Shown in pieces: positions 17,976-64,000 of a DNA stretch of 64,000 nucleotides; position 1 is the stretch's first letter, and each line of letters opens with the position of its first letter. A model generated the notes under the pieces. It was not told the DNA's origin, did no database searches, and saw nothing but the letters and a program-made list of their open reading frames with translations. A program made the position numbers and the translations under genes. The DNA lies in sequence record DRR378314_1695; one strand, written 5' to 3'.

Positions 17976-18650
17976 CTAATCTAAAATTCGCCCATCCTCC
18001 ATCTGTATAATACGATCTGTACGTTTGGCAAAGTCCTCGTCGTGTGTCACGATCAAAAGGGAAAGACCTTCCTCCTCCTTAAGACGTTTAAAAATACTGA
18101 AGACATTTTCCGAATTGTGACTGTCCAAATTCCCTGTAGGTTCATCTCCCATAAGAATGGAAGGGTTATTTATTAAGGCCCTGGCGATCGCCACCCTTTG
18201 TTTTTCCCCGCCGGATATCCGCGAGGCCCGTTGGTGGGCCAACTTTTCTATATCCAACATTCTTAATTTCTCCATGGCATCGTGTTCTATTTCTGCCAAG
18301 GACTTCTCTGCCAATTTTTTGGCTGGCAGCATCACATTTTCCAATACGCTAAACTCGGACAACAAATAATGGAACTGAAACACGAATCCTATATTTTTAT
18401 TCCGAATTTGGGACAGTTTGCTATGTTTTTGTCCGGTAATCAATTCGTTGTTCAAATATAGTTCTCCTGTGTAATCCGTATCCATGGTAGACAGAATATA
18501 TAGCAGGGTAGACTTCCCTGATCCCGATTTACCCATGATAGAGGCAAATTCCCCCATTTTTATTCTGAAAGAAATATCCTTGAGCACATGAAATTTCACA
18601 GGCTTTTCAAAGTATTTATTGATATTTTTTGTCTCTAAAACGAAGTCCAT
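17976..18650 (-). CDS. ABC transporter ATP-binding protein (LolD/MacB type)
   Basis: Walker A GKSGSGKST, signature ISGGEKQR, Walker B region DEPTGNLD. Confidence 0.93.
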   Translation of the reverse strand: MDFVLETKNINKYFEKPVKFHVLKDISFRIKMGEFASIMGKSGSGKSTLLYILSTMDTDYTGELYLNNELITGQKHSKLSQIRNKNIGFVFQFHYLLSEFSVLENVMLPAKKLAEKSLAEIEHDAMEKLRMLDIEKLAHQRASRISGGEKQRVAIARALINNPSILMGDEPTGNLDSHNSENVFSIFKRLKEEEGLSLLIVTHDEDFAKRTDRIIQMEDGRILD

Positions 18651-18659
18651 TTTTCTAGG

Positions 18660-19922
18660 TTAAGTTCCCCTAATAATCCGCACAGGGTCTATGCGCTTTG
18701 CTTTGTTGGAAGGCAACCAACCGGCAACAAAGGTCGAAATCAGGGCAAAGGAAATGCCAATGATATAATACCAAATATTATAGTTTATGGGATAGGTGGT
18801 AATGGTTGGCAACGCCTCGGTTTCGAATGCCACATTATCTATTAGTTTGGAAAGAACAAACCCAACAAATAGACCAAGTATCCCGCCCAATGCCCCAATG
18901 ATCATGGCCTGACTCATAAAAATTAGTTGTACATCGGTACCCGAAAACCCTGTAGCTTTTAATATGGCGATATCCTTCATTTTTTCATAAATAAGCATGT
19001 TTAGTATATTATAGATTCCAAAACCGGCAACAATCAGTAATGTAATGGACACGGCATAGGTAATAAGGTTTCGGATATTGGATCCCGTTTCAAATTGGGC
19101 ATTGGCCTCATTTACACTTGTCGCCTTTACTTGAAACTGTTTCCCCAAACTACTTGCCATGGTCGTGGCTTCGTTAATATCGTACAACTTTACATTGATA
19201 TCGGTAACGTAATTCTGGGCCTCACCCAAAATACGTTGCACCGTCTTTAGATTGGCATAACTCTGAATATTATCTATATCCGCAATACCGCTTTGGTATA
19301 TCCCTACAATTTTTAGGGGAAAAACATCGCCCTTTATAGTACTGACCTGTACTCGATCACCCTCCTTGAGCGACATTTTTTTGGCAAGGCCCGCTCCCAA
19401 AAGTATTCCGTTTTCACTGTTTTTTAGATCCTGTGCCGTTCCCTCCACTATATAATCATCAATATTAGAGAGTCTTGCCTCTTCCATAATATCCACTCCT
19501 ACCAAGTTCCCCCCTAATTCTATAGATCCGGAGAGATAAAAGATCTGCGCCCTTAGTTGGGGCGTTGCACCATAAACCTTTTTGTCCTTTTTTAGATAAT
19601 TCAAGATGGGGAGACCATTATGGATCTTCTTCTGACTTTGTTTGGGCTTAACGGAATTAACCACATTAAAGGCATCCTCAAATTCCTGATATAGGGCAAT
19701 GGGCTGTTTTTCTGAAGGTTCTATCTCATTGTAGATATGGATATGGGGCGTTTGGTTCAAAATAAGACTGTCCAGCATTTCATTGAGCCCCGTCATAAAA
19801 CTCACCAAAGTAATATAGGCCCCGATACCAAAGGTAACACCTAGGGAGGCCGTTACCGTAGATTTCATCTTGGTTAACAGATGGGTTTTAGCGATGTTCA
19901 ATATGACCTTCCAATTGATCAT
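18660..19922 (-). CDS. ABC transporter permease (MacB/FtsX/LolC-E family)
   Basis: One TM, a large periplasmic domain and three further TMs; IAILKATG motif. Confidence 0.88.
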   Translation of the reverse strand: MINWKVILNIAKTHLLTKMKSTVTASLGVTFGIGAYITLVSFMTGLNEMLDSLILNQTPHIHIYNEIEPSEKQPIALYQEFEDAFNVVNSVKPKQSQKKIHNGLPILNYLKKDKKVYGATPQLRAQIFYLSGSIELGGNLVGVDIMEEARLSNIDDYIVEGTAQDLKNSENGILLGAGLAKKMSLKEGDRVQVSTIKGDVFPLKIVGIYQSGIADIDNIQSYANLKTVQRILGEAQNYVTDINVKLYDINEATTMASSLGKQFQVKATSVNEANAQFETGSNIRNLITYAVSITLLIVAGFGIYNILNMLIYEKMKDIAILKATGFSGTDVQLIFMSQAMIIGALGGILGLFVGFVLSKLIDNVAFETEALPTITTYPINYNIWYYIIGISFALISTFVAGWLPSNKAKRIDPVRIIRGT

Positions 19923-21001
19923 TCTTCAGGTTTTAGAATCTCCGTGGTCTCATTGATACCATTTATAATTTCTACACGCTCCAAATTTTGAAGCCCGGGA
20001 ACAACTTCAACAAGTCCGTCCGGAGTCCTCACTTTGTTCCCCTCCAATAAAAACTCCTTGGGAATGGTCAAGACGCTTTCCTTCTCGGAAATAATTATAT
20101 TTCCCTCCCCTGCCAAACCAGGGTAAAGCGCTTGCGGTGGATTGCTAAAAATGGCCTCTGCCTTAAAGGTCTGGGAACGCTCATCCTTTTTGGGATATAT
20201 TTTGTTTACTTTGGCATCAAATACCTCATTGCCATAAGCATCCAAAGTAATAAGGGCTTTTTGGCCCAGCTGAAGTTTTACGATATCGACCTCGTCTATC
20301 AACAATTCAATAATAAAATCCGTAGCACTGCCAACCGATGCCAAAGGCTCCATAGTATTGACTATTTCCCCTGGGTTTTTGTATAAGGCATAAAGTTTTC
20401 CATTGATCTTGCTACTAACGGTAAAATCCTTGGTGGTAAGCTGCGAGGTATTATAATTGTTGAGCGCCTGCTGAACTTGGGTAGAAAGTTCGTTCTTGGT
20501 CTGGACATATTTATTTTTAAGTTGCTTTAAATTATTTCCTGAAATTTCATAAGCAAGTTTGCGGTTCTCAAACTGCACTTTCGATCCAATATTTTGATCC
20601 CAAAGCCTCTTTTGCCTAATAAAATTCATAGAATCGTTTTTAAAGGACAAGGTTGCCGATTGGATCTCATCTTCCAACGAACCTAAAACCGCCGAACTGC
20701 CGTTGTAATTTTCTTGCGCCAATTGAAGTGCCAAGCGCGCATTTTCCGTGTTGAGTTTCGGGGTACTGTTCACAATCTGGATAATTGGTGTCCCCTTGCT
20801 TACCAATTCCCCTTCCTCCAACAAATTACGGTCCAAAATACCTGCAACGGGGGCATAAGCCTGATACAGACTATCTGGCTGCACGGTTACGGAAGCATAA
20901 ACCGATTCCGTTAGATGGATTTTAGTGGGAAATATCTTTTCTTGTTTGTCTCCGCAGGATAAAAAAAGAAATAGACAATGGATCAATAAATAATTCCTCA
21001 T
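19919..21001 (-). CDS. Efflux periplasmic adaptor (HlyD/MFP), lipoprotein
   Basis: LSC lipobox, lipoyl-like half motifs flanking a coiled-coil hairpin; 4-bp overlap with the permease. Confidence 0.85.
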   Translation of the reverse strand: MRNYLLIHCLFLFLSCGDKQEKIFPTKIHLTESVYASVTVQPDSLYQAYAPVAGILDRNLLEEGELVSKGTPIIQIVNSTPKLNTENARLALQLAQENYNGSSAVLGSLEDEIQSATLSFKNDSMNFIRQKRLWDQNIGSKVQFENRKLAYEISGNNLKQLKNKYVQTKNELSTQVQQALNNYNTSQLTTKDFTVSSKINGKLYALYKNPGEIVNTMEPLASVGSATDFIIELLIDEVDIVKLQLGQKALITLDAYGNEVFDAKVNKIYPKKDERSQTFKAEAIFSNPPQALYPGLAGEGNIIISEKESVLTIPKEFLLEGNKVRTPDGLVEVVPGLQNLERVEIINGINETTEILKPEE

Positions 21002-21024
21002 AGACAATATTAACTAAGATAGCC

Positions 21025-21067
21025 CAAAATAAAGGGAAATATACTTTATAGAATATGAGAAAAATCA
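21025..21067 (-). promoter_or_regulatory. Degenerate Crp/Fnr-type box plus -7 element for the efflux operon
   Basis: TGAGAAAAATCA at 21056-21067 (one mismatch); TTATTTTG on the minus strand 23 nt away. Confidence 0.55.
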
Positions 21068-21378: not shown

Positions 21379-21888
21379 CTAAAGAAATTTTCCAGTTTCG
21401 TCCAGTTTAACCCGCAACATTTTATCCCCGTTCTCTAATTTAACCTTATAGGTTTTCTTTGCACCTAGAACATCGGTAAAGGAGACCAAATAAATATCTT
21501 TCGTAATAACCCATCCTGGAAAACGATCCGCTATGCTCTCCCTTACTGAAGTTGGCAAATTTATATCCTTAAACTTTTCAGCAGTGCGCAGTAGCTTTCC
21601 ATCGCCATCATAAGCGGCAAGAATTTTGCCTTCGGGAATAAAAAAGGTAATATTATAAAGGTCATAATCGTCCTGATAATATTCTGAGCTTTTAATATCA
21701 TAGGTCGCCACCTTTTCCTGCAATAGCTTCACCGGCACAGATGCCAACTCTCCAGTGTTGATATCATTGAGATATTTATAGTTGGTGGCGTAAACCGTTA
21801 CCTCCGATAATTCAACCGTAGGGATAATTTGAGAAAAGGATTGGGCGGTTAGTCCAATAGCTAATAAACCAAATAGAATTTTTTTCAT
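21379..21888 (-). CDS. Secreted hypothetical protein with a PepSY/BLIP-like C-terminal repeat
   Basis: Signal peptide MKKILFGLLAIG; LPTSVRESIADRFPGWVITK segment typical of such repeats. Confidence 0.6.
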   Translation of the reverse strand: MKKILFGLLAIGLTAQSFSQIIPTVELSEVTVYATNYKYLNDINTGELASVPVKLLQEKVATYDIKSSEYYQDDYDLYNITFFIPEGKILAAYDGDGKLLRTAEKFKDINLPTSVRESIADRFPGWVITKDIYLVSFTDVLGAKKTYKVKLENGDKMLRVKLDETGKFL

Positions 21889-21945
21889 GATCATTAAGTT
21901 TAAATATTAATTAGTATTAACATGGACTTCCTTTGTCCAATGGTA

Positions 21946-21988
21946 GCAAATTATCCCAACTTAAGGGCTTCTACAATGACCTAAGTCA
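21946..21988 (-). promoter_or_regulatory. Crp/Fnr-type box plus -7 element
   Basis: AA-TGACCTAAGTCA-TT at 21977-21988; TAATTTGC on the minus strand 23 nt away. Confidence 0.75.
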
Positions 21989-22035: not shown

Positions 22036-22078
22036 TGACCAATGTCATATTTTACCATAAAAGAAGGAATTAGATTTG
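22036..22078 (+). promoter_or_regulatory. Crp/Fnr-type box plus -7 element (PNPOx-like gene, probably ppsA)
   Basis: TGACCAATGTCA at 22036-22047; TAGATTTG at 22071-22078. Confidence 0.85.
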
Positions 22079-22161
22079 ATGTTAATAAGGATTTATGCGA
22101 AATGCCTTTTAGGGAATTCCATAAACTGTCACAGAATAGTTTAAAGATTATAAAAAGGAAT

Positions 22162-22614
22162 ATGACAAATTTGACCAATAGCGAAAGTATTCGCTTACTA
22201 AAGGGCAACTACACCGGACACTTGGGATATATATATCAGGATAAGCCTTATGTTCTCCCTATTACCTATTATTATGACAAGGATGATCATTCCCTAATAA
22301 GTTATTCGGCAGATGGCCACAAAATAGATGCCATGCGTCAGAATACAGCGGTGACCTTATTGGTCGAGGAAGTAAAATCATCCAACAATTGGCAATCGGT
22401 TATGGCCCATGGCACCTATGAAGAACTTCAAGGAACCGATGCCAAATTTAAGTTGCATCAATTTACAGAGGGGGTAAAGGGTCTTATCCTTGCCAAAGAG
22501 CATCGGGAAACTGAATTTATAAGTGAATTTTCAAGCAAATTGTACTCCCGCGGAATTCCGACGGTATATCGCATCAAAATATTAGAGATTACTGGAAAAA
22601 GGAAAGAAACCTAG
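22162..22614 (+). CDS. Pyridoxamine 5'-phosphate oxidase-like flavin-binding protein (NimA/Rv0080-like)
   Basis: GHLG, PYVLPITY, GHKIDAMRQN, WQSVMAHG; start ATG 22162 because the longer ORF begins inside the box. Confidence 0.85.
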   Translation: MTNLTNSESIRLLKGNYTGHLGYIYQDKPYVLPITYYYDKDDHSLISYSADGHKIDAMRQNTAVTLLVEEVKSSNNWQSVMAHGTYEELQGTDAKFKLHQFTEGVKGLILAKEHRETEFISEFSSKLYSRGIPTVYRIKILEITGKRKET

Positions 22615-22715
22615 CATAATCCCCCCAGGTTAGTTCCCCCTATTTTTCCAGCTATTAGCAATTAGCCTTACTCCTCAATAATGCTAATTTAAATAACCCA
22701 AATAATGTATTGGAG

Positions 22716-25124
22716 ATGGAAAACTATATAAGGCAATTTAACGACATAGATATAAACGATGTTCCTGAAGTAGGAGGAAAAAATGCCTCTTTGGGCGAAA
22801 TGTACCAGAAACTTACCTCAAAAGGAATTCAGGTTCCGGACGGATTTGCCACTACCTCGGACGCCTATTGGCTCTTCCTGAAAGAAGCGCAATTAAAAGA
22901 ATCCATATTCACCGAGATTTCAAAATTGGATAAGAAGGATTTTTCCAATTTACGGGAAGTTGGGAGTGCTATAAGAACAAGTATAGCCAAAGCAGATTTT
23001 CCGCAAGCTATCAAATCTTCCCTTGAGGACGGATATAATACACTGGTAAAAAAATACGGTTCCCAAATTTCCTTGGCGGTCCGCAGCAGTGCCACGGCAG
23101 AGGACCTTCCCAATGCCAGTTTTGCAGGGCAACAGGAAACCTATCTCAATGTAAAGGGTTTTGATGAACTGATAGCTGCCTGTCATAAATGTTATGCCTC
23201 CTTATTCACCGATAGGGCCATAAAATACCGCGAAGATAATCATTTTGACCAGACCAAGGTAGCGCTATCCATAGGCGTGCAGTTAATGGTGCGCTCGGAC
23301 TTGGCAAGTTCCGGAGTAAATTTCACCTTGGATCCGGACACTGGTTTTGATAAGGTAGTTCTTGTTACCAGCACTTGGGGCCTAGGTGAAAATATAGTTC
23401 AGGGCAGTGTTAATCCGGACGAATACTTCGTTTATAAACCTAGTCTTAAAAATAGTATTCGCCAACCCATTATTTCAAGAAAATTGGGCAGCAAGGAAAA
23501 AACCATGATTTACGATACTTCTGGCAGCGGTACCTTTAACCTGGACACCACAATAGAAAAACAGGAAAAATTTGTACTTACCGATGCCGAGGTAAAAAAA
23601 CTTGCCGAATGGTCTATAATTATTGAGGAACATTATGGACGTCCCATGGATATAGAATGGGCAAAGGACGGTTTGACCAATGAATTGTTTATAGTCCAGG
23701 CCAGACCGGAGACGGTGCAAAGTGCAAAAAAGGATAAACTCAAAATCAGTACCTATACCTTGCTGGAAAAAGGCAAGGAAATTACAAGGGGAATGGGTCT
23801 GGGCAACAAAATATCTGCAGGGAAGGCACGTATTATACATAGTCCCCTAGAATCCCATAAGCTACAGCATGGAGAAATACTCATCACGGAAAAGACCGAT
23901 CCCGATTGGGATCCCATCCTTAAAAAAGCTGCCGGCATCATTACGGACCAAGGGGGGCGCACAAGTCATGCCGCCATAGTTGCTCGTGAGGTAGGAGCTG
24001 CAGCAATTGTTGGCACCCTTAATGCTACAAAAACAATAAAGGATGGCCAGGATATCACCATTTCATGTGCAGATGGGGATACTGGAGTAGTTTACGATGG
24101 AATACTGAAATGGGACGAAAAAACAGTGGATATTAAATCACTTAAAAAACCCGCAACCCAACCCATGCTTATTTTGGCAGATCCAGAGCAAGCCTTCAAA
24201 CTATCATTTTATCCCACTGCCGGCGTTGGTCTTATGCGATTGGAATTTGTCATCAATAATTCCATCCAAATCCATCCGATGGCCTTAAAGCATTTTGACA
24301 CCCTAAAGGACCCCACTGTAAAGGAAACTATTGAAAAACTCACCCACCATTACCCTAACAAGGCCAATTATTTTGTGCATAAACTGGCAGAGGGCATTGC
24401 CACCATTGCAGCCGCCTTTTATCCCAAAGATGTTATTGTGCGTACAAGCGATTTTAAATCCAATGAATATGCCAATTTAATAGGCGGTAAGGAATTTGAA
24501 CCAATTGAGTCCAACCCTATGATCGGTTTTAGAGGAGCATCACGCTACTATCATCCCAAATATCAGGAAGCCTTTGAATTGGAGTGCAAGGCCATGAAAA
24601 TGGTCAGGGAGGACATGGGTTTTAATAATGTTAAGATAATGATTCCCTTCTGTCGTACCCTTACCGAAGCTGAAAGAGTGGTTGACCTTATGGCAGATTA
24701 CGGACTGAAAAGGGGTGAGAATGGCCTACAGCTCTATATGATGACCGAAATTCCCAACAACGTAATGCTGGCCGAAGAGTTCGCACATTTTTTTGATGGC
24801 TTCTCTATCGGCTCCAACGACCTTACCCAATTGACCTTGGGCGTTGATCGCGATTCAGAGCTCTTAAGCGACATTTTTAACGCCAATGATCCTGGACTAA
24901 AAAAAATGATCGCCATGGTCATTGCTTCCGCCCACAAAACGAATACAAAAATTGGACTCTGCGGACAGGCTCCAAGTGATTATCCCGAGTTTGCACAGTT
25001 TCTTGTAGAAAAAGGAATCAATTCCATCTCCTTTAATCCGGATGCGCTCATTGAAGGAATCAAGAATATAAATATGGCAGAAAATCATAAGGTAAGTTTT
25101 GGAATGGCGGAAAGTAGTAATTGA
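22716..25124 (+). CDS. ppsA: Phosphoenolpyruvate synthase
   Basis: VGGKNASLGEM, AVRSSATAEDLP, GGRTSHAAI (phospho-His), SIGSNDLTQ. Confidence 0.95.
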   Translation: MENYIRQFNDIDINDVPEVGGKNASLGEMYQKLTSKGIQVPDGFATTSDAYWLFLKEAQLKESIFTEISKLDKKDFSNLREVGSAIRTSIAKADFPQAIKSSLEDGYNTLVKKYGSQISLAVRSSATAEDLPNASFAGQQETYLNVKGFDELIAACHKCYASLFTDRAIKYREDNHFDQTKVALSIGVQLMVRSDLASSGVNFTLDPDTGFDKVVLVTSTWGLGENIVQGSVNPDEYFVYKPSLKNSIRQPIISRKLGSKEKTMIYDTSGSGTFNLDTTIEKQEKFVLTDAEVKKLAEWSIIIEEHYGRPMDIEWAKDGLTNELFIVQARPETVQSAKKDKLKISTYTLLEKGKEITRGMGLGNKISAGKARIIHSPLESHKLQHGEILITEKTDPDWDPILKKAAGIITDQGGRTSHAAIVAREVGAAAIVGTLNATKTIKDGQDITISCADGDTGVVYDGILKWDEKTVDIKSLKKPATQPMLILADPEQAFKLSFYPTAGVGLMRLEFVINNSIQIHPMALKHFDTLKDPTVKETIEKLTHHYPNKANYFVHKLAEGIATIAAAFYPKDVIVRTSDFKSNEYANLIGGKEFEPIESNPMIGFRGASRYYHPKYQEAFELECKAMKMVREDMGFNNVKIMIPFCRTLTEAERVVDLMADYGLKRGENGLQLYMMTEIPNNVMLAEEFAHFFDGFSIGSNDLTQLTLGVDRDSELLSDIFNANDPGLKKMIAMVIASAHKTNTKIGLCGQAPSDYPEFAQFLVEKGINSISFNPDALIEGIKNINMAENHKVSFGMAESSN

Positions 25125-25245: not shown

Positions 25246-25288
25246 TGATTTATATCATTTCTCATCACCTTCGTAAATACTTCCTTTG
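25246..25288 (+). promoter_or_regulatory. Crp/Fnr-type box plus -7 element (pfkB-glk)
   Basis: A-TGATTTATATCA-T at 25246-25257; TTCCTTTG at 25281-25288. Confidence 0.8.
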
Positions 25289-52008: not shown

Positions 52009-52022
52009 AAGTAATATTTTGC

Positions 52023-53520: not shown

Positions 53521-53522
53521 TT

Positions 53523-55831: not shown

Positions 55832-55894
55832 TAAAATTAGCAAATAGCCCAAGTATTATATATGACAATAATCAGTTTAAAAATTTTATCTTTG
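55832..55894. promoter_or_regulatory. Crp/Fnr-type box, activator geometry for the TerB-like gene and overlapping the heme-PAS kinase promoter
   Basis: TGACAATAATCA at 55863-55874; TAATTTTA (minus) 23 nt away; TATCTTTG (plus) at 55887-55894, only 12 nt away. Confidence 0.75.
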
Positions 55895-55898
55895 GCTT

Positions 55899-57410: not shown

Positions 57411-57417
57411 AAGAGCA

Positions 57418-58470
57418 ATGAAGACAATTCTATTAATCGAGGACGATAGGGCCTTGCGTGAAAATACCGAAGAGCTTTTGGAGCTTTCAGGTTATTCCAT
57501 GATTACGGCCCCAAACGGAAAAATTGGTATTCAAATGGCCAAGGAAAAATTGCCGGATATTATTGTCTGCGATATTATGATGCCAGAGGTGGATGGTTAT
57601 GGCGTTCTAAAGGACTTGTCTTCAGACGAAAGCACCAAACATATTCCCTTTATATTCCTATCTGCCAAAACCGAACATAAAGAGATACGACGTGGAATGG
57701 ATCTGGGCGCCGATGATTACCTTACCAAGCCTTTTGAAGAGGAAGACCTCATAAACGCCATAGAAAGTAGATTGGCCAAAGTGGAACTATTGGGGCGTAT
57801 GGCAAAGGAAGGGACGCTGGATCCGGCAGTTTCGGAAGATCAGATACGCACCTTGAACGAGTTGAAGAATTTTTTTGACGACAATGGAGAACCCACTAGT
57901 TTTCCCCAAGGCAGTACCATCTACCAAGAAGGGACCTATTCTCATAAAATATACCTTATCCTAAAAGGGGTCGTAAAATGCCATACTATGGACGAGGACG
58001 GAAAAGAATTGATCACTTCCCTGTTTAGGGCAGATGACTTTTTAGGATTTACCTCCTTTATAGACAATATTCCTTATCAGGAATCGGCAACCGCCATCGA
58101 GGATGTGGAACTGGCCGGGATATCCAAGGAAAATTTAAAGCAGGTGTTGGAAAAGAACCACAATATCTCCTTGGAACTCATGGAACTGCTTACTGGAAAT
58201 ATTAAGGACATAAAACAGCAATTGTTGCAAATGGCCTATAGTTCCGTGCGAAAGAAAACCGCCCAAACCTTGTTGCAGTTCGCAGAAATAATGAACAAAA
58301 AAACCGAGGATCCCATTAAAATTTCCCGAAATGATCTGGCCAGTGTAGCCGGTATTGCTACCGAAAGCCTTATCCGCACGCTGTCCGGATTCAAAAAGGA
58401 AGGACTAATAGACATTGAAGGCAGAAATATCCGTATCAAGGAATTAAAGGCCCTGCAATACATCAATTAA
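57418..58470 (+). CDS. Response regulator, REC plus cNMP-binding-like plus Crp/Fnr HTH
   Basis: LLIEDD, CDIMMP, TKPF; HTH RNDLASVAGIATESLIRTL; paralog of 39073..40140. Confidence 0.92.
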   Translation: MKTILLIEDDRALRENTEELLELSGYSMITAPNGKIGIQMAKEKLPDIIVCDIMMPEVDGYGVLKDLSSDESTKHIPFIFLSAKTEHKEIRRGMDLGADDYLTKPFEEEDLINAIESRLAKVELLGRMAKEGTLDPAVSEDQIRTLNELKNFFDDNGEPTSFPQGSTIYQEGTYSHKIYLILKGVVKCHTMDEDGKELITSLFRADDFLGFTSFIDNIPYQESATAIEDVELAGISKENLKQVLEKNHNISLELMELLTGNIKDIKQQLLQMAYSSVRKKTAQTLLQFAEIMNKKTEDPIKISRNDLASVAGIATESLIRTLSGFKKEGLIDIEGRNIRIKELKALQYIN

Positions 58471-58503: not shown

Positions 58504-58546
58504 TGACCAATGTCATATTACAGTTATGGCCATAAGTTTAGTTTTG
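58504..58546 (+). promoter_or_regulatory. Crp/Fnr-type box plus -7 element (usp array)
   Basis: TGACCAATGTCA at 58504-58515; TAGTTTTG at 58539-58546. Confidence 0.87.
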
Positions 58547-58571: not shown

Positions 58572-59408
58572 ATGAAGAATATACTGTTCCCCACCGATTT
58601 TTCCGAAAATTCATGGTACGCAATTGAATATGCCTTAAAGCTGTTCAAAGATGCTCCCTGTAATTTTTATGTACTCCATGTTGATGCTTTAAGTAGATCC
58701 GGTGTGGACAGCAATTCCTTTGTTATGCCATTCAAAAGTATTAATGTGGCCCTTAAGGATAATCTAGAGGATACCTTTGCCCGTATTAAGACCATTACCA
58801 CCAACAAGGAACATAATTTTATCGCCCTCCATGAATATGGAAATCTCATAGATATTGTTCGAAAGACCATATCGGACAAAAAGATAAATCTAATTGTCAT
58901 GGGGACCAAAGGGGCTTCGGGCTTAAAAGAAACCATTTTGGGCAGCAATACCGGGAATGTCATGACCAAAGTACCCTGTAATCTATTGGTGATTCCAGAA
59001 AAAGCCGTGCAGTGCATCCCTCAAGAAATTGCCTTTCCTACCGATTACAATAATTTCTATTCCCATTCTATTTTGGAGGCGATTTCAAAAATGCTCCGTC
59101 TCACCAAAGCCAACCTAAGTGTTGTTAATGTCTCGAAGCCCAGTGTACAATTAAATGAAGCCCAAAATCAGAATATGGTCTATTTACAGGACTATCTGCT
59201 GGAACTTTATGAAAAATCGCATAGTATCCACAACCTAAAACATGAAAAGGCCAAAAGTGCCATTGAGCAATTTGTTGTCAGTGAGAAAATAGATATGGTG
59301 ATCATGGTGGCCAAGAACCTAAATTTTCTGCAACAGCTGCTGTTCGACACCACCATTAAAAAAATTAGTTTTCAGACGAGGATTCCTTTACTTGTCCTCC
59401 ACGAATAA
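58572..59408 (+). CDS. Universal stress protein
   Basis: ILFPTDFS, IVMGTKG, GSNT, AFPTDY. Confidence 0.94.
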   Translation: MKNILFPTDFSENSWYAIEYALKLFKDAPCNFYVLHVDALSRSGVDSNSFVMPFKSINVALKDNLEDTFARIKTITTNKEHNFIALHEYGNLIDIVRKTISDKKINLIVMGTKGASGLKETILGSNTGNVMTKVPCNLLVIPEKAVQCIPQEIAFPTDYNNFYSHSILEAISKMLRLTKANLSVVNVSKPSVQLNEAQNQNMVYLQDYLLELYEKSHSIHNLKHEKAKSAIEQFVVSEKIDMVIMVAKNLNFLQQLLFDTTIKKISFQTRIPLLVLHE

Positions 59409-59438: not shown

Positions 59439-59481
59439 TGATAAATGTCATAGGTTTTATATGTCGCTACCAATAACTTTG
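59439..59481 (+). promoter_or_regulatory. Crp/Fnr-type box plus -7 element (usp array)
   Basis: TGATAAATGTCA at 59439-59450; TAACTTTG at 59474-59481. Confidence 0.87.
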
Positions 59482-59503: not shown

Positions 59504-60349
59504 ATGAAAGCAGTTTTGATTCCTACCGATTTTTCCCACAGTGCCATGCATGCCATAGATTATGCACTGAATCTTTACAAATGTGAACGCACCAACTTCT
59601 ACTTTTTACATGCTTATGCAGATGAGGTTTATGGTCCGTTCAAGACTAATGGGGAAACCTCAGTTGAAGAACAAAAAGAAATTGTAAAGAACAATACGGA
59701 TAAATCCTTAAAGGATCTCATCCAAAAACTAACTGCTAGGGAGCACAATCCAAAACACACCTATGAAGCGCTGTCTGCATTCGACACCTTGGTAGATGCA
59801 GTTAACGACTTTGCCAACCAAATAAATGTTGACCTGGTCATAATGGGTACAAAAGGACAGACAGCGGACAAAAAAATCACTTTCGGTAGCCATACGGTAC
59901 AGGTTTTCAAATACGTACAGTGCCCGGTACTAGCAGTTCCTTTGGACTATAAGTACCATCAGCCAAAAAAGATATTGTTTCCCACAGATTATATGCTGCC
60001 TTATAAACGTCGGGAATTGAAGTTGCTGAATACCTTGGCAGCCGAATTTAAATCGGAGATCCATTGCCTTTACATATCAGACTTTGAAGATTTAAGCAAC
60101 AGGCAGATAGACAACCAACGCTTCCTAAAAGAATCTTTGGCAGACGCCTTCCTGTTTTTTAAAATATGCCCCACTAAGAATAAGGCCGAGGCCATAATGG
60201 ATTACATCAAAAAGAATAACATAAACCTTTTGGTCATGGTAAACTCGCGCCATTCATTCTTGGAAGATATGCTTTACAGATCAACGGTAGACGAAATTGG
60301 GCTACGCTTAAAGGTACCTTTTTTGGTGATGCAGAATCTACCTAGATAA
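59504..60349 (+). CDS. Universal stress protein
   Basis: VLIPTDFS, VIMGTKG, GSHT. Confidence 0.94.
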   Translation: MKAVLIPTDFSHSAMHAIDYALNLYKCERTNFYFLHAYADEVYGPFKTNGETSVEEQKEIVKNNTDKSLKDLIQKLTAREHNPKHTYEALSAFDTLVDAVNDFANQINVDLVIMGTKGQTADKKITFGSHTVQVFKYVQCPVLAVPLDYKYHQPKKILFPTDYMLPYKRRELKLLNTLAAEFKSEIHCLYISDFEDLSNRQIDNQRFLKESLADAFLFFKICPTKNKAEAIMDYIKKNNINLLVMVNSRHSFLEDMLYRSTVDEIGLRLKVPFLVMQNLPR

Positions 60350-60366
60350 TTTAAAAAGATGTAAGG

Positions 60367-61230
60367 ATGAAAAAAATTTTGTTGCCCACCGACTTTTCCA
60401 CTAACGCTTGGAACGCCATCGTGTATACGGTGAATTATTTCCAAAATGAAAAGTGTCTTTTCTATATACTTCACACCTATACCCCTACTTTTTACAGGGT
60501 AGATTATATGATGGGAGGTCCGGTCAATAGTGCCATTCCCGACAAGGGTGTAGAGGTGGCCCAGGCAGGTTTGGAAAAGACGCTAAGGGATTTAAGAAAG
60601 AACCTGCATAACAAAAACCATCAATTCAAAACCATTTCATCTTTTAATATTCTAACCGATGAAATTGAAGAGGTTACCGCAAGGGAGGGAATAGACATCA
60701 TTGCCATGGGAACCCAGGGAGCTACAGGGGCCAAGGAAATCTTTTTGGGAACCAACACGGTCCATGTTATCAAAAAAGCCAAGATTCCGGTATTGGCCAT
60801 TCCCAATGGTTATGCCTTTAAGGAAATTGATTCCATAGTCTTCCCTACAGATTACACCACGCCTTATGACCCAGAGGCATTAGGTTTTCTGGCAGAAATG
60901 TCCAAGTTGCAAAAGGCTAGAATAATAGTACTGAATGTTAAGGAGGATTTTGTCCTTAACGAGAAACAAAATGCCCATAAAAAAGCCCTAGGCGCTTTCC
61001 TTCAGCCCATGGACCATAGCTTTGAGCAGGTCAAGGGCGAATTAATGCCCAATGCCATACATGAATATGTGGAAAAACATAGAATTGGGCTACTGGCCAT
61101 CATGAACCGCAAACATACATTTTTACATCGGCTGATCAATAAATCTACTATAGACTCCATTGGATATCATTCCAGGATACCCTTTGTAGCCATACCAGAA
61201 AGTTGGGAAGAACCCCTTAAAAAAACTTAA
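60367..61230 (+). CDS. Universal stress protein
   Basis: ILLPTDFS, IAMGTQG, GTNT. Confidence 0.94.
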   Translation: MKKILLPTDFSTNAWNAIVYTVNYFQNEKCLFYILHTYTPTFYRVDYMMGGPVNSAIPDKGVEVAQAGLEKTLRDLRKNLHNKNHQFKTISSFNILTDEIEEVTAREGIDIIAMGTQGATGAKEIFLGTNTVHVIKKAKIPVLAIPNGYAFKEIDSIVFPTDYTTPYDPEALGFLAEMSKLQKARIIVLNVKEDFVLNEKQNAHKKALGAFLQPMDHSFEQVKGELMPNAIHEYVEKHRIGLLAIMNRKHTFLHRLINKSTIDSIGYHSRIPFVAIPESWEEPLKKT

Positions 61231-62081
61231 TGATGAAAAATATATTGTTGCCGACAGATTTTTCCGATAATGCCTGGAATGCCATATTTACAGCATTAAA
61301 ACTCTATGCCGATGTGAAATGTACATTTCTCATTTTACATGCCTATGAGCCAAAGGCCTTGAACATGTTAGGGCAAAAAAATCAACAGAGATTAGGAATC
61401 ATTTACGACTCATTGGCACTGAATGCTGCTCAGGAATTGGAAAAAATATTGTCTTACCTAAGCGAAAACCACAACAACCCTAACCATAAATTTGAAACCA
61501 TATCAAAGTCCGATACTTTGGAAGGCGCAGTTAAGGAATTAGCCTCTACCAAGGATATAGACCTCGTTGTTATGGGAACTCAAGGTGCTACCGGAGCAAA
61601 GGAAATCTTTATGGGCAGCAATACGGTAAAAGTCCTAAAACAACTTAATAATATTTCCATTTTAGTGGTTCCCAAGGACTATAACTTCCAAAAGTTAAAG
61701 ACGCTGGTCTTCCCTACAGATTATACCAGGAAGTATGAAAAGTTTGAGCTATTGCCCATGACAGAACTTACAAAACTTTGGAACGCAACCATACAGGTGA
61801 TACATGTGGCAGTAGAATTTTTACTCAACGACGTCCAGGAAGCAAACCAAAAAATTTTGGAAGAGCGTTTAGCCGGTTATAACTATAGCCTACATGAACT
61901 TGGCTTCGATGGCAATATTGCACAAAGTGTTGAGCAGTATGTAGCTGAAACCAGGGCAGATCTATTGACCATGGTGCGGTACCATCATAACTTTTGGGAA
62001 AGAATTATAGATGAGCCCGTAATAAAAAAAATAGCCTTTCATTCCACGGTGCCGGTCTTGTTCCTACCCGAGCAGTCATAG
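61230..62081 (+). CDS. Universal stress protein
   Basis: ILLPTDFS, VVMGTQG, GSNT; TAATG stop/start overlap. Confidence 0.94.
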   Translation: MMKNILLPTDFSDNAWNAIFTALKLYADVKCTFLILHAYEPKALNMLGQKNQQRLGIIYDSLALNAAQELEKILSYLSENHNNPNHKFETISKSDTLEGAVKELASTKDIDLVVMGTQGATGAKEIFMGSNTVKVLKQLNNISILVVPKDYNFQKLKTLVFPTDYTRKYEKFELLPMTELTKLWNATIQVIHVAVEFLLNDVQEANQKILEERLAGYNYSLHELGFDGNIAQSVEQYVAETRADLLTMVRYHHNFWERIIDEPVIKKIAFHSTVPVLFLPEQS

Positions 62082-62245
62082 GAAGGGCAAATAAAAGCCG
62101 TTTAACTATAAAAAAGATGGTACATACATGATTCAGAAAATTATTATACCCTAAGGGTAATAACACTTTTAATCATTACAGCTTACACCCTCTTGAATGA
62201 AACTCTAAAGCTGCAGTGACCACTAAAAGCTATAAAAACAAACAA

Positions 62246-63106
62246 ATGAAAGCAAAACATATACTACTGCCCACGGACTTCTCGGCAAACGCGCGGAATG
62301 CCATAGACTACGCCATTTACCTTTTTGAAAAGGTAGATTGTGTATTTCATATTTTGCATGCCTTTGAAGTTGGGGCATCCAATTTGAGCAGTACCATGGG
62401 AAAGGCAAAGGACACTCGCCTATTTAGGGCAATAAAGGATGAATCCCAGAGAGACATGAAATCCCTAATAGACGAACTGGAATCCGCAAATAAAAATACT
62501 AAGCACTCTTTTAAGGGATTAAGTATCGCCGATTCCTTGGTAAATGCCATAGGAAGAACCACTATCGATAAAGGCATACAATATATTTTTATGGGAACCA
62601 AAGGTTCCTCCGCTCTGAAAGAGGTATTTATGGGCAGCAACACGGTAAGGATTATTCAGAAAATAGACTTCTGCCCTATCATTGCCGTTCCTGAAAATTA
62701 TGATTTTGATCTTCCTGACGAAATAGCCTTTGCCACAAATTTTGAACATATTTACAGTGAGGTAGAACTGGTACCGCTCATAGGATTGGCAAAATTATGG
62801 AACTCCAAAATCACCATCGTACATATTGATACGGGCAAGGAATTGCAACCCCATCAACAAACAGCCAAAGATACATTGCCCAAAAGGTTCTTTGGCCTAA
62901 ATCACGGTTTTGAAGAAATTAAAGGACATACTTCTATTTCTGGGGCCATAAATGGCTATACCCATGAAAATGAAAATATAGGAATGATTGCCATGGTAAA
63001 TTATTGGCACAGTTTCTTTGAGAAGTTAACCAAAGAAAATGTTATAAAGCGGGTAGCCTTCAATACGGAAGTACCTTTTTTAATATTTCCCCTGATAGAA
63101 CCCTAA
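62246..63106 (+). CDS. Universal stress protein
   Basis: ILLPTDFS, IFMGTKG, GSNT; start ATG 62246. Confidence 0.94.
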   Translation: MKAKHILLPTDFSANARNAIDYAIYLFEKVDCVFHILHAFEVGASNLSSTMGKAKDTRLFRAIKDESQRDMKSLIDELESANKNTKHSFKGLSIADSLVNAIGRTTIDKGIQYIFMGTKGSSALKEVFMGSNTVRIIQKIDFCPIIAVPENYDFDLPDEIAFATNFEHIYSEVELVPLIGLAKLWNSKITIVHIDTGKELQPHQQTAKDTLPKRFFGLNHGFEEIKGHTSISGAINGYTHENENIGMIAMVNYWHSFFEKLTKENVIKRVAFNTEVPFLIFPLIEP

Positions 63107-63141
63107 ACGTTGCTACCATTTTACAACAATTACGGCCCACA

Positions 63142-63184
63142 TGATATATGTCATAGGGCAACAATTCTAGAGCAATTAATTTTA
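63142..63184 (+). promoter_or_regulatory. Crp/Fnr-type box plus -7 element (usp)
   Basis: A-TGATATATGTCA-T at 63142-63153; TAATTTTA at 63177-63184. Confidence 0.82.
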
Positions 63185-63240
63185 GTTCACTGAATTCAAC
63201 CAACAAAACCAAACCATATTGAACCGTTAAAATAACATTT

Positions 63241-64000
63241 ATGAAAAATATATTGATACCTACCGACTTTTCTGACAATGCCTGGAATGCCATTAAATAT
63301 GGTACGGCATTGTACTCTAAAACCAGATGTACTTTTCATATTATTCATATAAATCCCATTTCCTACAATTCCGGTGGTGAAGCCGCCATGTATGTTTCTC
63401 CTGAAATATTGGAGGAAACCATCCTAAAGGAAAGTAAGGAAAAATTGGAAAATTTGCTTAAAGAGATTGAACGCCTGCCCCTTAACACCAAACATACCTT
63501 TAAGACATTGGCGTTGTACGGATTTTTTACAGATCATATTAAGCAGGAAGTACAGGATAAAAATATTGACCTGATCATTATGGGAACTAAAGGAGCCACC
63601 GGCCTTAAAGCTGTTTCCTTGGGCAGCAATACCGGTAACGTTCTAACAAAAGTACGATGCGCTGTTCTGGCAGTGCCCGAAGACGCAGAATACAATACCC
63701 CGCGAGAAATAGGGTTTCCTACAGATTTTCAGTTAAGCTATGATATAAAGGTCCTGAACCATATCAAGGAACTTGCTGTACTGCACAGCTCTGCCCTTCG
63801 CTTCCTATATGTTTCCCAAAAAGGAAAAGACCTCAGCGATCTTCAGAAAAAGAATAAGGAATTTATAAAAAATTATTTTAGGGAAAACGAACATTACTTT
63901 CATACCCTTACCATAAAGAATTTGGACGACGCGGTACAAGCATTTGTAGAAAGCAGGGATTTGGATATGCTGGTCATGGTAGCCAAGAACCTAAACTTCT
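63241..64000 (+). CDS. Universal stress protein (partial, runs off the window; absent from the ORF track)
   Basis: Manual translation MKNILIPTDFSDNAWNAIKYG...DLIIMGTKGATGLKAVSLGSNTG. Confidence 0.92.
   Translation, partial: MKNILIPTDFSDNAWNAIKYGTALYSKTRCTFHIIHINPISYNSGGEAAMYVSPEILEETILKESKEKLENLLKEIERLPLNTKHTFKTLALYGFFTDHIKQEVQDKNIDLIIMGTKGATGLKAVSLGSNTGNVLTKVRCAVLAVPEDAEYNTPREIGFPTDFQLSYDIKVLNHIKELAVLHSSALRFLYVSQKGKDLSDLQKKNKEFIKNYFRENEHYFHTLTIKNLDDAVQAFVESRDLDMLVMVAKNLNF

Follow-up and report, generated by a model that had tools for sequence, protein, structure and literature searches.

Published low-oxygen loci

The lxa locus of Burkholderia cenocepacia (PMC3721108) is a clustered low-oxygen locus in which a TGA-N6-TCA motif occurs at 17 intergenic points. 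It encodes six USPs, an alpha-crystallin, Pta, AckA, a PfkB-type kinase and a cation ATPase, is induced 2- to >240-fold at low O2, and is required for anoxic survival. A clustered DevR-like regulon has been published for Streptomyces (PMC5069765).

The stretch analysed here (64,000 nt of record DRR378314_1695, referred to as the window) holds most of what appears to be an island of about 50 kb in a marine flavobacterium, with stress-survival and fermentation genes, nearly all of which lie behind one FNR-type promoter box. By Pfam, the cargo in the window comprises eight USPs, Hsp20, PfkB, a P-type ATPase, an M50-CBS protease, a PNPOx-like protein, Pta, AckA and PpsA, the families named in a first-pass annotation of this DNA. 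The nearest genome (G001) has 63% of sampled 31-letter words in common with the window and was the basis for dispersed sites and for the FNR-like gene discussed below; in it the island extends about 9 kb past the window end, with a D-2-hydroxyacid dehydrogenase just beyond that end. The lxa locus is very similar to the island as a clustered low-oxygen regulon, and its gene content overlaps, in agreement with the annotation's comparison to published regulons. The label "DosR-like" fits the cargo only, by analogy; no homology links the regulators, the sensors or the box to M. tuberculosis DosR or DosS/DosT. The annotation knew of no characterisation, and for the REC-Crp regulator family none was found in the literature searched, but the concept of a clustered low-oxygen locus is already published for B. 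cenocepacia.

We consider it probable that the island carries class II Crp/Fnr-dependent promoters read by Crp/Fnr-type proteins, including two REC-Crp regulators under haem-PAS and LOV kinases, and its genes would be induced at low O2. The cargo would suit an aerobe surviving oxygen depletion. Glucan mobilisation and substrate-level ATP formation could be provided by the phosphorylase-like protein, glucokinase, PfkB kinase, PpsA, Pta-AckA and the D-2-hydroxyacid dehydrogenase, and protein and membrane protection by 8-11 USPs, Hsp20, YtxH, the M50-CBS protease and the P-type ATPase. RNA contigs compared with the island gave presence only.

The box and the composite promoter

The shared palindromic box reported earlier is real. 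ATGAYNNNNRTCAT occurs 10 times in the window, where 0.43 occurrences are expected and the highest count in 100 shuffles was 2; every occurrence lies within 21976-63154. The core TGAYNNNNRTCA (TGAY-N4-RTCA) had 19 against 3.92 expected (largest in shuffles, 8), 18 of them beyond 21.9 kb. Two core matches were inside genes, at 8145 and, in the LOV kinase gene, at 41430; the remaining 17 were intergenic or reached into a called longest ORF no further than its 5' end. Composite promoters, defined as the box followed after 23 nt by TAnnTTTG (the Bacteroidota -7 element) with up to two mismatches allowed, numbered 22 (8 with none, 10 with one and 4 with two mismatches). They lay between 21067 and 63142, with none in the first 21 kb of the window, and the reversed-sequence control gave three matches, each with two mismatches.

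Eighty loci from other genera, centred on the regulator RR2, were used to count box/-7 offsets and neighbouring genes. Measured from the start of the box, TAnnTTTG began at an offset of 35 nt in 196 cases; no other offset had more than 17, the number at the second peak, offset 24. Boxes were intergenic in 503 of 587 cases (2.18 per kb vs 0.064 per kb in genes), and 119 of the 196 exact composite sites preceded USP homologues. Palindromes could arise by chance, intergenic DNA being AT-rich and the box core short (eight specified positions), but none of the 100 shuffles reached the observed counts, the 23-nt spacing to the -7 box was fixed in the 80 loci, and 667 composite matches were found across 81 genomes with 0 or 1 per genome for the reversed control. 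A chance origin was rejected by these shuffle, spacing and reversed-pattern controls, and its probability is negligible.

The sigma-A -7 box of Flavobacterium psychrophilum occupies -12 to -5 (PMC9723704), and because of this and the fixed spacing, the box centre is placed at -41.5. The promoter would consist of (A/C)TGAY-N4-RTCAT, a palindrome with its centre at -41.5 that takes the place of the -33 element, and the sigma-A -7 box TAnnTTTG 23 nt downstream. At class II promoters, -41.5 is where Crp/Fnr activators classically bind.

Transcription units in the window

The box had been placed before most units from 18 kb onward. The 22 composites bear this out, except that one ABC operon has a degenerate site only and several units have no box. 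That operon (MacB-type ABC ATPase, FtsX permease and HlyD-family adaptor; 17976-21007, minus strand; Pfam) is preceded by a weak site at 21056-21067 (minus; one core mismatch, one mismatch in the -7-like element), and its membership of the regulon is doubtful. In two other genera (L105, L106) this ABC trio again adjoins genes of the cluster, and boxes are close by. The box at 21977-21988 (minus; two mismatches in the -7 element) lies upstream of a 171-aa lipoprotein-like ORF (21379-21894). A homologue of this ORF, 54% identical, is the neighbour of a gene for a REC-Crp protein in one distant genome (L094).

An exact composite promoter (box 22036-22047, plus) precedes the PNPOx-like gene (22042-22614) and PpsA (22710-25124; both Pfam); because it overlaps the longest-ORF start, the true start of the former is probably an in-frame ATG near 22102. 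The box at 25246-25257 (plus; one mismatch in the -7 element) is upstream of a PfkB-family kinase (25440-26387), with glucokinase next (26584-27660; both Pfam). Bidirectional boxes follow at 28777-28788, between a tandem USP on the minus strand (27762-28622) and Pta (28847-30940) and AckA (30965-32155) on the plus strand (Pfam), and at 32676-32687, facing on the plus side a 128-aa ORF (32756-33142), an ABC1/UbiB-type kinase (33148-34830) and an exo/endonuclease-phosphatase family gene (34969-35733), and on the minus side a 69-aa membrane ORF (32261-32470). Upstream of ORF 36570-37337, which has a weak sigma-70 region-4 match (25.4 bits vs a Pfam cut-off of 25.7), and the small ORFs 36147-36542 and 35730-36095 is a box at 37403-37414 (minus). 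Another bidirectional box (38046-38057) faces a YtxH-like gene (38133-38462) and ORF 38469-38813 on the plus strand and ORF 37476-38012 on the minus strand.

The first regulator pair is encoded on the minus strand by RR1 (39073-40140) and HK1 (40118-42976), which overlap by 23 nt. Their operon has an exact composite promoter (box 43028-43039, minus) and may be positively autoregulated. A second exact composite promoter (box 43066-43077, plus) accompanies a patatin-like phospholipase (43079-43972; Pfam), whose true start is probably further downstream. The bidirectional box at 44737-44748 separates Hsp20 (44203-44667, minus) from the P-type cation ATPase (44888-47389, plus; both Pfam). Among the minus-strand genes at 47427-52059 (Pfam), only the M50-CBS protease (50920-52059) has a box, at its 5' end (52054-52065, minus; two mismatches in the -7-like element); the others encode a DUF3417-containing protein that resembles alpha-glucan phosphorylase (48181-50745) and UPRTase (47427-48101), and the gaps in front of them (50746-50919 and 48102-48180) contained no box. 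The box at 54214-54225 (minus) is upstream of a WG-repeat protein (53523-54161), an SDR (52759-53556; both Pfam) and ORF 52240-52740, and an exact composite promoter (box 54354-54365, plus) precedes a tandem USP (54544-55368; Pfam).

Beyond the second pair, HK2 (55899-57410) and RR2 (57418-58470), both on the plus strand, exact composite promoters (boxes 58504-58515 and 59439-59450, plus) precede a tandem USP (58572-59408) and a USP run (59504-60349, 60367-61230, 61230-62081 and 62216-63106). A box at 63142-63153 (plus) is upstream of a USP that starts at 63241 and is cut by the window end (all Pfam). No own box was found for glucokinase, the phosphorylase-like gene, UPRTase, the exo/endonuclease-phosphatase gene or the USP at 62216.

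The box of the HK2-RR2 operon is at 55863-55874. It stands at activating spacing for the minus-strand ORF 55402-55806, but on the plus side its -7 element is at offset 24 rather than 35, a non-activating position. This site, with its centre near -30.5 over the core promoter, and the 17 recurrences of offset 24 in related loci would suit a repressor site, at which phosphorylated or unphosphorylated regulators block promoters. As a general account of the boxes, repression is very improbable: the 196 exact sites and 21 of the 22 window composites centre the box at -41.5, where the -33 element would be, the geometry of CRP/FNR class II activation.

REC-Crp and FNR-like regulators

Two pairs of a PAS kinase and a REC-Crp regulator had been described, and both were recovered by Pfam: RR1 (355 aa) and RR2 (350 aa) each combine REC, cNMP_binding-like and HTH_Crp_2 domains and adjoin a PAS histidine kinase. 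The two are 42% identical. Their receivers, by our reading of the translations at REC consensus positions, keep acidic residues at 8-10, Asp52, Ser/Thr82 and Lys104. On alignment of RR2 to M. tuberculosis CRP, three pocket positions that are Glu, Arg and Thr in CRP are Phe, Tyr and Gln. Each regulator would be an N-terminal receiver joined to a Crp/Fnr body with a degenerate cyclic-nucleotide pocket, so that DNA binding or activation would be switched on by phosphorylation rather than by a small ligand.

The nearest genome also encodes a stand-alone Crp/Fnr protein of 228 aa. Among NCBIfam models it scores best against Fnr (101.8 bits, under the cut-off of 228), and it has Cys4, Cys7, Cys53 and Cys106. 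A composite site precedes its gene and the nearby hemN (TIGR00538, 435 bits, above cut-off). Its helix-turn-helix region is near-identical to those of RR1 and RR2, the recognition helices being E-S-A-I-R, E-T-A-I-R and E-S-L-I-R, respectively. The island boxes would be read by Crp/Fnr-type proteins with this common E-x-x-I-R helix, two of them encoded in the island. Since the helix is the same, the FNR-like protein, encoded outside the island, could also serve the island boxes, and it probably has this box in common with the fusions. The proposal that the REC-Crp proteins act in place of Fe-S FNR is contradicted by this four-Cys protein with its own box; the fusions would add to FNR rather than substitute for it.

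Sensor kinases

Both proposed inputs were borne out at the level of domains. HK2 residues 16-130 match the haem domains of FixL and DosP (E 4e-12 to 1e-10), and His66 aligns with the same His in both, which we take to be their proximal haem ligand. Among HK2 orthologues His66 and Arg80 are each kept in 58/58 and Arg86 in 51/58. HK1 has several PAS domains, including a LOV domain with the motif GRNCRFLQ (E 8.1e-34 to solved LOV domains). RR2 would receive its input from a FixL-like kinase that is most likely active once O2 leaves the haem, and RR1 from a kinase that may sense blue light through the LOV flavin domain. The rhizobial FixL > FixJ > FixK cascade would be shortened here to a FixL-like kinase acting on a REC-FixK-like fusion. 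Haem-PAS domains can report NO, CO or redox state as well.

A general stress, stationary-phase or energy-starvation regulon, with NO, CO, redox or light as the possible cue and oxygen not the main trigger, is possible but rather unlikely. In its favour, USPs, Hsp20 and YtxH belong to stress responses of a generic kind, the operon of the LOV kinase and its regulator carries a box at activating spacing, a related kinase (L105) joins haem-PAS and LOV, and the O2-contacting Arg86 is replaced in 7/58 HK2 orthologues and 3/11 distant haem-PAS kinases. Against this, the FixL-like haem-PAS kinase is the most widely conserved REC-Crp partner: in 14 further REC-Crp loci a kinase adjoined the regulator in 13, and 11/14 kinases matched the HK2 haem-PAS domain (E <= 1.3e-16) with the His conserved, one matching Bradyrhizobium FixL at 4.5e-33. 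The oxygen-independent enzyme hemN has the same promoter design in the nearest genome, Pta-AckA and the 2-hydroxyacid dehydrogenase are fermentative, and the closest published analogue, lxa, is oxygen-controlled.

Conservation across Bacteroidota

REC-Crp proteins were found in 41/301 sampled Bacteroidota genomes (36/144 genera). Kinase, regulator, USPs and box are kept together in many genera: among the ORFs called in the 80 loci, 77 had HK2 as their best match, 65 had ORF 55402 and 17 to 66 had each of the USPs, and cargo homologues (USP, Hsp20, Pta-AckA, P-type ATPase or other) occurred in 11/14 further loci.

The 81 genomes (80 genera) of the family sample, which are related, were sorted by presence of the REC-Crp regulator (RR) and the FNR-like protein. 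Composite sites per genome averaged 13.8 in RR+FNR+ (n=24), 8.0 in RR+FNR- (n=17), 6.2 in RR-FNR+ (n=31) and 1.0 with neither (n=9). Genome size is a confounder of the family counts, with a mean of 4.0 Mb in RR+FNR+ and 2.2 Mb with neither. The sites in the 31 genomes that lack REC-Crp, together with the Cys residues, helix and own sites of the G001 protein, would fit a reading in which the boxes belong solely to the stand-alone Fe-S FNR-like regulator and the REC-Crp proteins are chance neighbours that control other genes or only their own operons. We regard this as unlikely. The 17 genomes with REC-Crp and no FNR-like match (E <= 1e-40) hold 5-13 sites each. In the two of these that were examined, the sites cluster about the RR gene: seven of the eight listed sites of G307 fall within C2:246-297 kb, with RR at 291 kb, and five of nine in G336 within C1:315-375 kb, with RR at 368 kb. 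Linkage of RR, kinase and USP/Hsp20 is kept in distant families. USP expansion also follows RR rather than the FNR-like protein: USP-domain matches stand at 12.9 in RR+FNR- but 5.6 in RR-FNR+, with overall means of 14.8 with RR vs 5.0 without. Across the 81 genomes, both regulator types accompany the box promoters.

Promoter architecture of the island

The palindrome ATGAYNNNNRTCAT matched 10 times in the window versus 0.43 expected (the highest of 100 shuffles was 2), and its core, TGAYNNNNRTCA, matched 19 times versus 3.92 expected. Two core matches fall within genes, at 8145 and, in the LOV kinase gene, at 41430. The remaining 17, from 21977 to 63153, are intergenic or fall at the very 5' edge of a longest-ORF call. 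The palindrome is of the FNR/CRP type (TGA-N6-TCA) and is written here as TGAY-N4-RTCA. At 8 window sites the Bacteroidota sigma-A -7 element, TAnnTTTG, begins exactly 35 nt past the start of the box. When up to two mismatches were allowed across box and -7 element, 22 composite sites were obtained in the window (8 exact, 14 near-exact) versus 3 in the reversed sequence used as a control; all lie at 21067-63142, and the first 21 kb contains none. These counts bear out the first-pass annotation, which had reported the same palindromic box ahead of most transcription units from 18 kb onward.

The same arrangement was found in 80 loci of other genera that were fetched with RR2, one of the island's two regulators. 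They contain 587 boxes, 503 of them intergenic, at a density of 2.18 per kb in intergenic DNA versus 0.064 per kb within genes. The -7 element was offset from the box start by 35 nt in 196 cases, by 24 in 17 and by 36 in 13. CRP and FNR activate class II promoters from position -41.5. The box centre in the island is placed at -41.5 because the offset of 35 is fixed and the -7 box of Flavobacterium psychrophilum spans -12 to -5 (PMC9723704). With this predicted geometry at the 22 window sites and the 196 related-locus sites, the island promoters would be class II Crp/Fnr-dependent promoters.

Asymmetry is evident in the logo of 195 unique sites, with T in 98% just after the promoter-proximal half-site and C (54%) or A (40%) preceding the distal half-site. 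An identical 12-mer, TGACCAATGTCA, is present in three window boxes (22036, 54214 and 58504), and the box at 54354 is one base off. Boxes near the other regulator gene, RR1, are mostly TGAT-(T/A)-rich, and the bases at the box centre vary somewhat from one half of the island to the other. An attempt to sort the boxes into RR1 and RR2 sets gave no separation, the recognition helix being common to both regulators.

Genes and extent of the island

The G+C content of the window is even (0.37 to 0.44). Positions 252-17937 hold a polysaccharide-utilisation-type stretch with a SusC/SusD pair, a sulfatase, a PhoD-like phosphatase, a GH63-like hydrolase, a glycogen debranching enzyme and two GFO/IDH oxidoreductases. 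No box was found in its intergenic regions, and it therefore serves as an internal negative control.

Read with their downstream genes, the sites gave about 21 transcription units. The first of these are a lipoprotein-like ORF, a PNPOx-like protein with PpsA, a PfkB kinase (and glucokinase), a tandem USP (universal stress protein), Pta-AckA, and a small ORF with an ABC1/UbiB-type kinase (and an exo/endonuclease-phosphatase family gene). A 69-aa hydrophobic membrane ORF (32261-32470, minus strand), absent from the 90-aa ORF list, lies in the 600-nt gap after AckA on the minus face of the box at 32676-32687. There follow a protein with a weak sigma region-4 match and two small ORFs, YtxH with an ORF, a 178-aa ORF, the HK1-RR1 operon, a patatin-like phospholipase, Hsp20, a P-type ATPase, an M50-CBS protease (perhaps with a phosphorylase-like gene and UPRTase), and a WG-repeat protein with an SDR and an ORF. 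The last units are a USP, a 134-aa ORF (55402-55806, minus strand) with its box at the activating spacing, another USP, a run of three or four USPs, and a USP cut off by the end of the window. In all, 8 USP genes are present in the window.

For the PNPOx-like, patatin-like and M50-CBS genes, the longest-ORF starts (22042, 43079 and 52059) fall within the predicted promoter of the gene or upstream of it, and the Pfam matches begin at residues 47, 23 and 65, respectively. The true starts of these three genes are probably in-frame codons further downstream.

The source of the window is Arenibacter algicola or a strain very close to it, RR2 being 100% identical to an NCBI protein of that species. 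In the nearest genome (G001), which has 63% of sampled words in common with the window, homologous DNA extends past the window end and carries three more USPs, an MscS-like channel, an ATP-cone/Mrr protein, a beta-CASP metallo-RNase, a D-2-hydroxyacid dehydrogenase and three further boxes; the island is therefore about 51 kb long. On the other side, the first-pass annotation had opened the cluster at an ABC/FtsX/HlyD operon (17976). Only a degenerate site is present there, although the operon is syntenic with island genes in two other genera, and it is a doubtful member of the cluster.

Regulators and sensor kinases

RR1 (39073-40140, minus strand, 355 aa) and RR2 (57418-58470, plus strand, 350 aa) each have Response_reg, cNMP_binding and HTH_Crp_2 domains (REC-Crp) and are 42% identical to each other. 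They belong to the Crp/Fnr superfamily by PF00027 (6.8e-24 in RR1, 4e-18 in RR2) and PF13545 (4.6e-15 and 1.5e-12), and their PDB matches to CRP, GlxR and FNR range from 2.8e-19 to 4.5e-13. Both are also response regulators (PF00072, 1.9e-28 and 9.6e-29) with a kinase gene in the same operon, from which phosphotransfer is predicted: the HK1 gene (40118-42976, minus strand) overlaps RR1 by 23 nt, and the HK2 gene (55899-57410, plus strand) ends 7 nt before RR2. When the translations were read against the REC consensus positions, both receivers appeared to retain acidic residues at positions 8-10, Asp52, Ser/Thr82 and Lys104.

A cAMP-binding CRP was considered for RR2 and rejected. In an alignment with M. 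tuberculosis CRP, three pocket positions of the phosphate cassette, Glu, Arg and Thr (Ser/Thr), which we take to be the cAMP-contacting residues, are replaced by Phe, Tyr and Gln. RR2 is therefore unlikely to bind a nucleotide ligand, which leaves the receiver as its plausible switch.

The composite promoter ahead of HK1-RR1 is exact, suggesting that this operon is under positive feedback. At the HK2-RR2 operon the -7 element is at offset 24 from the box (55863-55898), with the box centre near -30.5. Among the 80 related loci this offset ranks second in frequency, and the recurrent arrangement suggests that HK2-RR2 is under negative or no autoregulation.

HK2 residues 16-130 gave matches to haem domains, those of Rhizobium FixL at E 4.1e-12, of Bradyrhizobium FixL at 2.4e-10 and of E. 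coli DosP at 8.5e-11. The FixL and DosP chains have a His, presumably their proximal haem ligand, at the position of His66, and Arg80 and Arg86 align with two FixL Arg residues that we take to be the propionate- and O2-contacting pair. In the window HK2 and 57 orthologues, His66 and Arg80 are conserved in 58/58 and Arg86 in 51/58. HK2 is thus a predicted haem-binding PAS kinase of the FixL/DosP type. HK1 has several PAS domains, one of which is a LOV domain with GRNCRFLQ, a form of the flavin-adduct motif GXNCRFLQ (among solved LOV domains, E 8.1e-34 to a LOV histidine kinase; 1e-22 to 5e-27 to those of phototropin, YtvA and aureochrome), and is a predicted LOV photosensor. The haem-PAS and LOV inputs named in the first-pass annotation were in this way confirmed at the level of homology and signature residues.

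In a REC-Crp-adjacent kinase from another genus of the family (genome G220, locus L105, 7628-9508), the LOV motif NCRFLQ occurs at residue 178 in addition to a FixL-like haem-PAS domain (E 1.5e-36 to HK2 residues 4-130). This one protein may sense both oxygen and light.

Distribution in Bacteroidota

The best 120 relatives of RR2 all have the three domains, at 77-100% identity, and come from Arenibacter, Maribacter, Pricia, Pseudozobellia, Kriegella, Cellulophaga and metagenomes. A full-length match to RR2 (E <= 1e-50) was present in 41/301 sampled Bacteroidota genomes, representing 36/144 genera in several families; at that cut-off, REC-Crp regulators were found in 0/63 and 0/49 genomes of two large Bacteroidota families.

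In 14 further loci from 13 genomes, a kinase is kept beside the regulator in 13. Haem-PAS domains in the 14 kinases were scored by phmmer and alignment. The HK2 haem-PAS was matched by 11/14 (E <= 1.3e-16) with the His conserved, and one kinase reached 4.5e-33 to Bradyrhizobium FixL; a regular expression for the FixL stretch matched only 1/14. Homologues of the island cargo (USPs, Hsp20, Pta-AckA, P-type ATPase, M50-CBS) were found in 11/14 loci. Since kinase, His and cargo are retained, the conserved unit comprises a FixL-like kinase, a REC-Crp regulator, USP/Hsp20-type cargo and the box.

Composite sites outside the island and a stand-alone FNR-like protein

G001 has 19 exact composite sites versus 0 for a reversed control pattern. 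Eight are in the 42-kb island homologue. The other 11 include one at locus L088 with no called downstream gene; the remaining 10 precede hemN (TIGR00538, 435.5 bits, above cut-off), a stand-alone Crp/Fnr gene, a DnaJ-like gene, a USP, a cytochrome c gene, a 994-aa CheB/CheR-PAS fusion (L082 34-3018; G001 C1:116500-119800), a pyridine-nucleotide disulphide oxidoreductase, an amidohydrolase, an L,D-transpeptidase and a DeoC-family aldolase. The exact composite site at the CheB-CheR-PAS gene hints that control by the box extends to a chemosensory-type methylation module in G001. A second, small 'FNR island' was observed at G001 C1:519224-536360 (L083, L084), where a box-led hemN is followed by a USP domain (C1:520706-521125) and the box-led FNR-like gene is 15 kb from the hemN/USP pair.

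The stand-alone protein of G001 (228 aa) has Fnr as its best NCBIfam match, at 101.8 bits, below the cut-off of 228. It has four cysteines (Cys4, Cys7, Cys53 and Cys106), a recognition helix E-S-A-I-R and a helix-turn-helix nearly identical to those of RR1 and RR2, and it probably reads the same box. The first-pass annotation had the REC-Crp regulators acting in place of an Fe-S FNR; for this genus, that claim therefore fails.

Exact composite sites were counted in 81 Flavobacteriaceae genomes (80 genera); the genomes are related and of unequal sizes, and the resulting means are descriptive only. There were 13.8 sites on average in the 24 genomes with both REC-Crp and FNR-like regulators, 8.0 in the 17 with REC-Crp only, 6.2 in the 31 with FNR-like only and 1.0 in the 9 with neither. 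USP-domain matches averaged 14.8 in genomes with REC-Crp versus 5.0 in those without; the values were 12.9 in genomes with REC-Crp only and 5.6 in those with an FNR-like regulator only. In two FNR-less genomes the listed composite sites are grouped around the REC-Crp gene. These observations fit both regulator types using the same promoter design, with the REC-Crp systems owning the expanded USP islands.

Comparison with known systems

The nearest published system to the island is the lxa locus of Burkholderia cenocepacia (Sass et al. 2013, PMC3721108). In that description, about 50 genes are clustered in an aerobe, with a TGA-N6-TCA FNR/Anr-type motif at 17 intergenic points and four other loci, and Crp/Anr-like and two-component regulators are encoded within the locus. 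The cargo includes six USPs, an alpha-crystallin/Hsp20 protein, acetate kinase, phosphate acetyltransferase, a PfkB-type sugar kinase, a cation-transporting ATPase and a metal-dependent RNase. Low oxygen induced expression up to >240-fold, and deletion mutants had reduced anoxic survival. Clustering, motif and overlapping cargo are common to both; induction was measured for lxa and is predicted for the island. The island differs in phylum, in promoters that have a -7 box without -10/-35 elements, and in its LOV input. The Crp regulators of lxa are stand-alone and Anr-like, listed apart from the response regulators, whereas in the island receiver and Crp/Fnr domains form one polypeptide. The PHA synthesis, ribonucleotide reductase and alcohol dehydrogenase genes described for lxa were not seen in the island.

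In the rhizobial cascade, FixL acts on FixJ, a NarL/LuxR-type regulator, and FixJ on FixK, with cbb3 oxidase or nitrogen fixation genes as targets. The island resembles this cascade in its FixL-type haem-PAS kinase (E 4e-12; 4.5e-33 at a related locus) and in the output of a Crp/Fnr-type activator at TGA-N6-TCA-like boxes. Unlike the cascade it lacks both FixJ as an intermediate and fixK as a gene of its own: the Crp/Fnr protein carries the receiver itself, and the two-step transcriptional cascade would therefore become one phosphotransfer. The targets also differ, being stress and fermentation genes in the island; a cytochrome c gene is the only one of the respiratory kind among the dispersed sites.

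The island, called DosR-like in the first-pass annotation, was also considered as a DosR (DevR) regulon proper, and this was rejected. Its regulators are Crp-type, its sensors PAS-type and its palindrome FNR-type, with no homology of regulator, sensor domain or operator; DosS and DosT use GAF domains, not PAS domains. The island is like the DosR and OsdR systems in its proposed hypoxia-survival logic in aerobes, haem-based kinases, and a cargo of many USPs with a small heat-shock protein. According to PMC5069765, the Streptomyces OsdK-OsdR regulon is clustered and DevR-like, with USP genes around the regulators and a pyruvate phosphate dikinase; unlike the island, DosR/OsdR systems have a NarL/LuxR-type regulator and a GC-rich box (PMC5069765). 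What survives of 'DosR-like' is thus an overlap of cargo families (USP, Hsp20, PfkB, P-type ATPase). The lxa authors had already remarked on such an overlap between their locus and the DosR regulon, with phosphofructokinase and a cation ATPase given among the DosR-regulon homologues (PMC3721108). The claimed counterparts of Rv2625c and Rv0080 found no confirmation in any of the consulted texts.

Like E. coli FNR and Pseudomonas Anr, the island system has an inverted repeat with a TGA-N6-TCA core, predicted to be centred at -41.5, a Crp-fold regulator without cAMP-binding residues, and hemN among the candidate targets. In FNR proper, [4Fe-4S] is ligated by an N-terminal Cys cluster together with one Cys of the beta-roll. 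RR1 and RR2 were rejected as Fe-S FNR proteins of this kind: they lack an N-terminal Cys cluster and have the receiver domain there. Their recognition helices (E-T-A-I-R in RR1, E-S-L-I-R in RR2) have Ile where, as we take it, the FNR motif has Ser, and A or C replaces T as the outer half-site base.

The literature searches found no work on REC-Crp regulators, or on this island, in Bacteroidota. A 2023 CRP-family review (PMC10187061) has no occurrence of 'receiver' or 'response regulator'; its consulted passages mention no receiver fusions, those of PMC6365647 have nothing relevant to REC-Crp regulators, and PMC8510549 treats Flavobacteriales Crp homologues as MalR-like. The earlier statement that no characterisation was known stands for the REC-Crp family within the literature searched, but analogous clustered regulons have been published (PMC3721108, PMC5069765). 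The receiver-Crp/Fnr fusion is new, as is its pairing with a FixL-like kinase, by which the FixLJ-K logic is shortened; the LOV input, the phylum and the Bacteroidota promoter grammar are new as well. Of the overall first-pass interpretation, the box-led cluster and the two kinase/REC-Crp pairs with haem-PAS and LOV inputs are retained, but FNR replacement is not, and 'DosR-like' stands as an analogy of cargo.

Proposed mechanism

The model is built on what was observed: the cis-element, its spacing, the domain architectures, the sensor signatures and the conservation of linkage. From these we infer the binder of the box, the polarity of the signals, induction and physiology. As O2 falls, the HK2 haem would lose its ligand and HK2 would phosphorylate RR2. 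An RR2 dimer on the box at -41.5 would then recruit RNA polymerase to promoters that have a -7 box and no -33 element. HK1 and RR1 would carry light, and perhaps further PAS-sensed signals, to the same or overlapping boxes, and the FNR-like protein would be a third input. The output would be glucan breakdown and substrate-level ATP (phosphorylase-like protein, glucokinase, PfkB, PpsA, Pta-AckA, 2-hydroxyacid dehydrogenase), with protection and maintenance by USPs, Hsp20, YtxH, M50-CBS, P-type ATPase and RNase.

More broadly, we suggest tentatively, giving the whole proposal a little under an even chance, that REC-Crp/Fnr fusions are widespread, uncharacterised, phosphorylation-activated class II activators in aerobic Bacteroidota; that with FixL-like haem kinases they collapse FixL-FixJ-FixK to one phosphotransfer; that in Arenibacter they join oxygen, blue light and a classical FNR-like protein at one operator; and that they drive a 50-kb anoxic-survival programme (glucan fermentation, USPs, chaperones) in marine flavobacteria regarded as strict aerobes. 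Much of the degradation of algal polymers on particles, where oxygen fluctuates, is the work of marine Flavobacteriia, whose sensing and survival of oxygen loss are little described. If true, the proposal would give a defined operator, promoter grammar and regulon to a regulator family present in 41/301 sampled Bacteroidota genomes, and a natural Crp/Fnr protein switched by phosphorylation rather than by a ligand or an Fe-S cluster. It would also make this the third independent lineage, after Actinomycetota and Burkholderia, with much the same hypoxia kit (USP, small heat-shock protein, sugar kinase, cation ATPase and acetate pathway), and such recurrence would speak for a kit of general use to aerobes. 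Light and oxygen sensing would, moreover, be linked at shared promoters in a way that can be tested.

Transcript contigs and small proteins

Contigs of the RNA library X2, which may include DNA and indicate presence only, with no ranking, no starts and no meaning attached to uncovered stretches, were set aside as evidence; they cover Hsp20, the WG/SDR genes, the USP at 54544, the ORF at 55402, the USP at 58572, the USPs at 59504-60367 and the start of the USP at 63241.

Eight small hypothetical island proteins had no NCBIfam match. The 134-aa protein at 55402-55806 had no Pfam or NCBIfam match; it was the best match of 65 called ORFs across the 80 related loci. The proteins encoded at 32756-33142 and 36147-36542 are small, acidic and helical (~130 aa), without a family match, and come first or early in box-driven units. 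In a distant genome (locus L094), a 28%-identical relative of the 32756-33142 protein adjoins Hsp20 and a REC-Crp gene.
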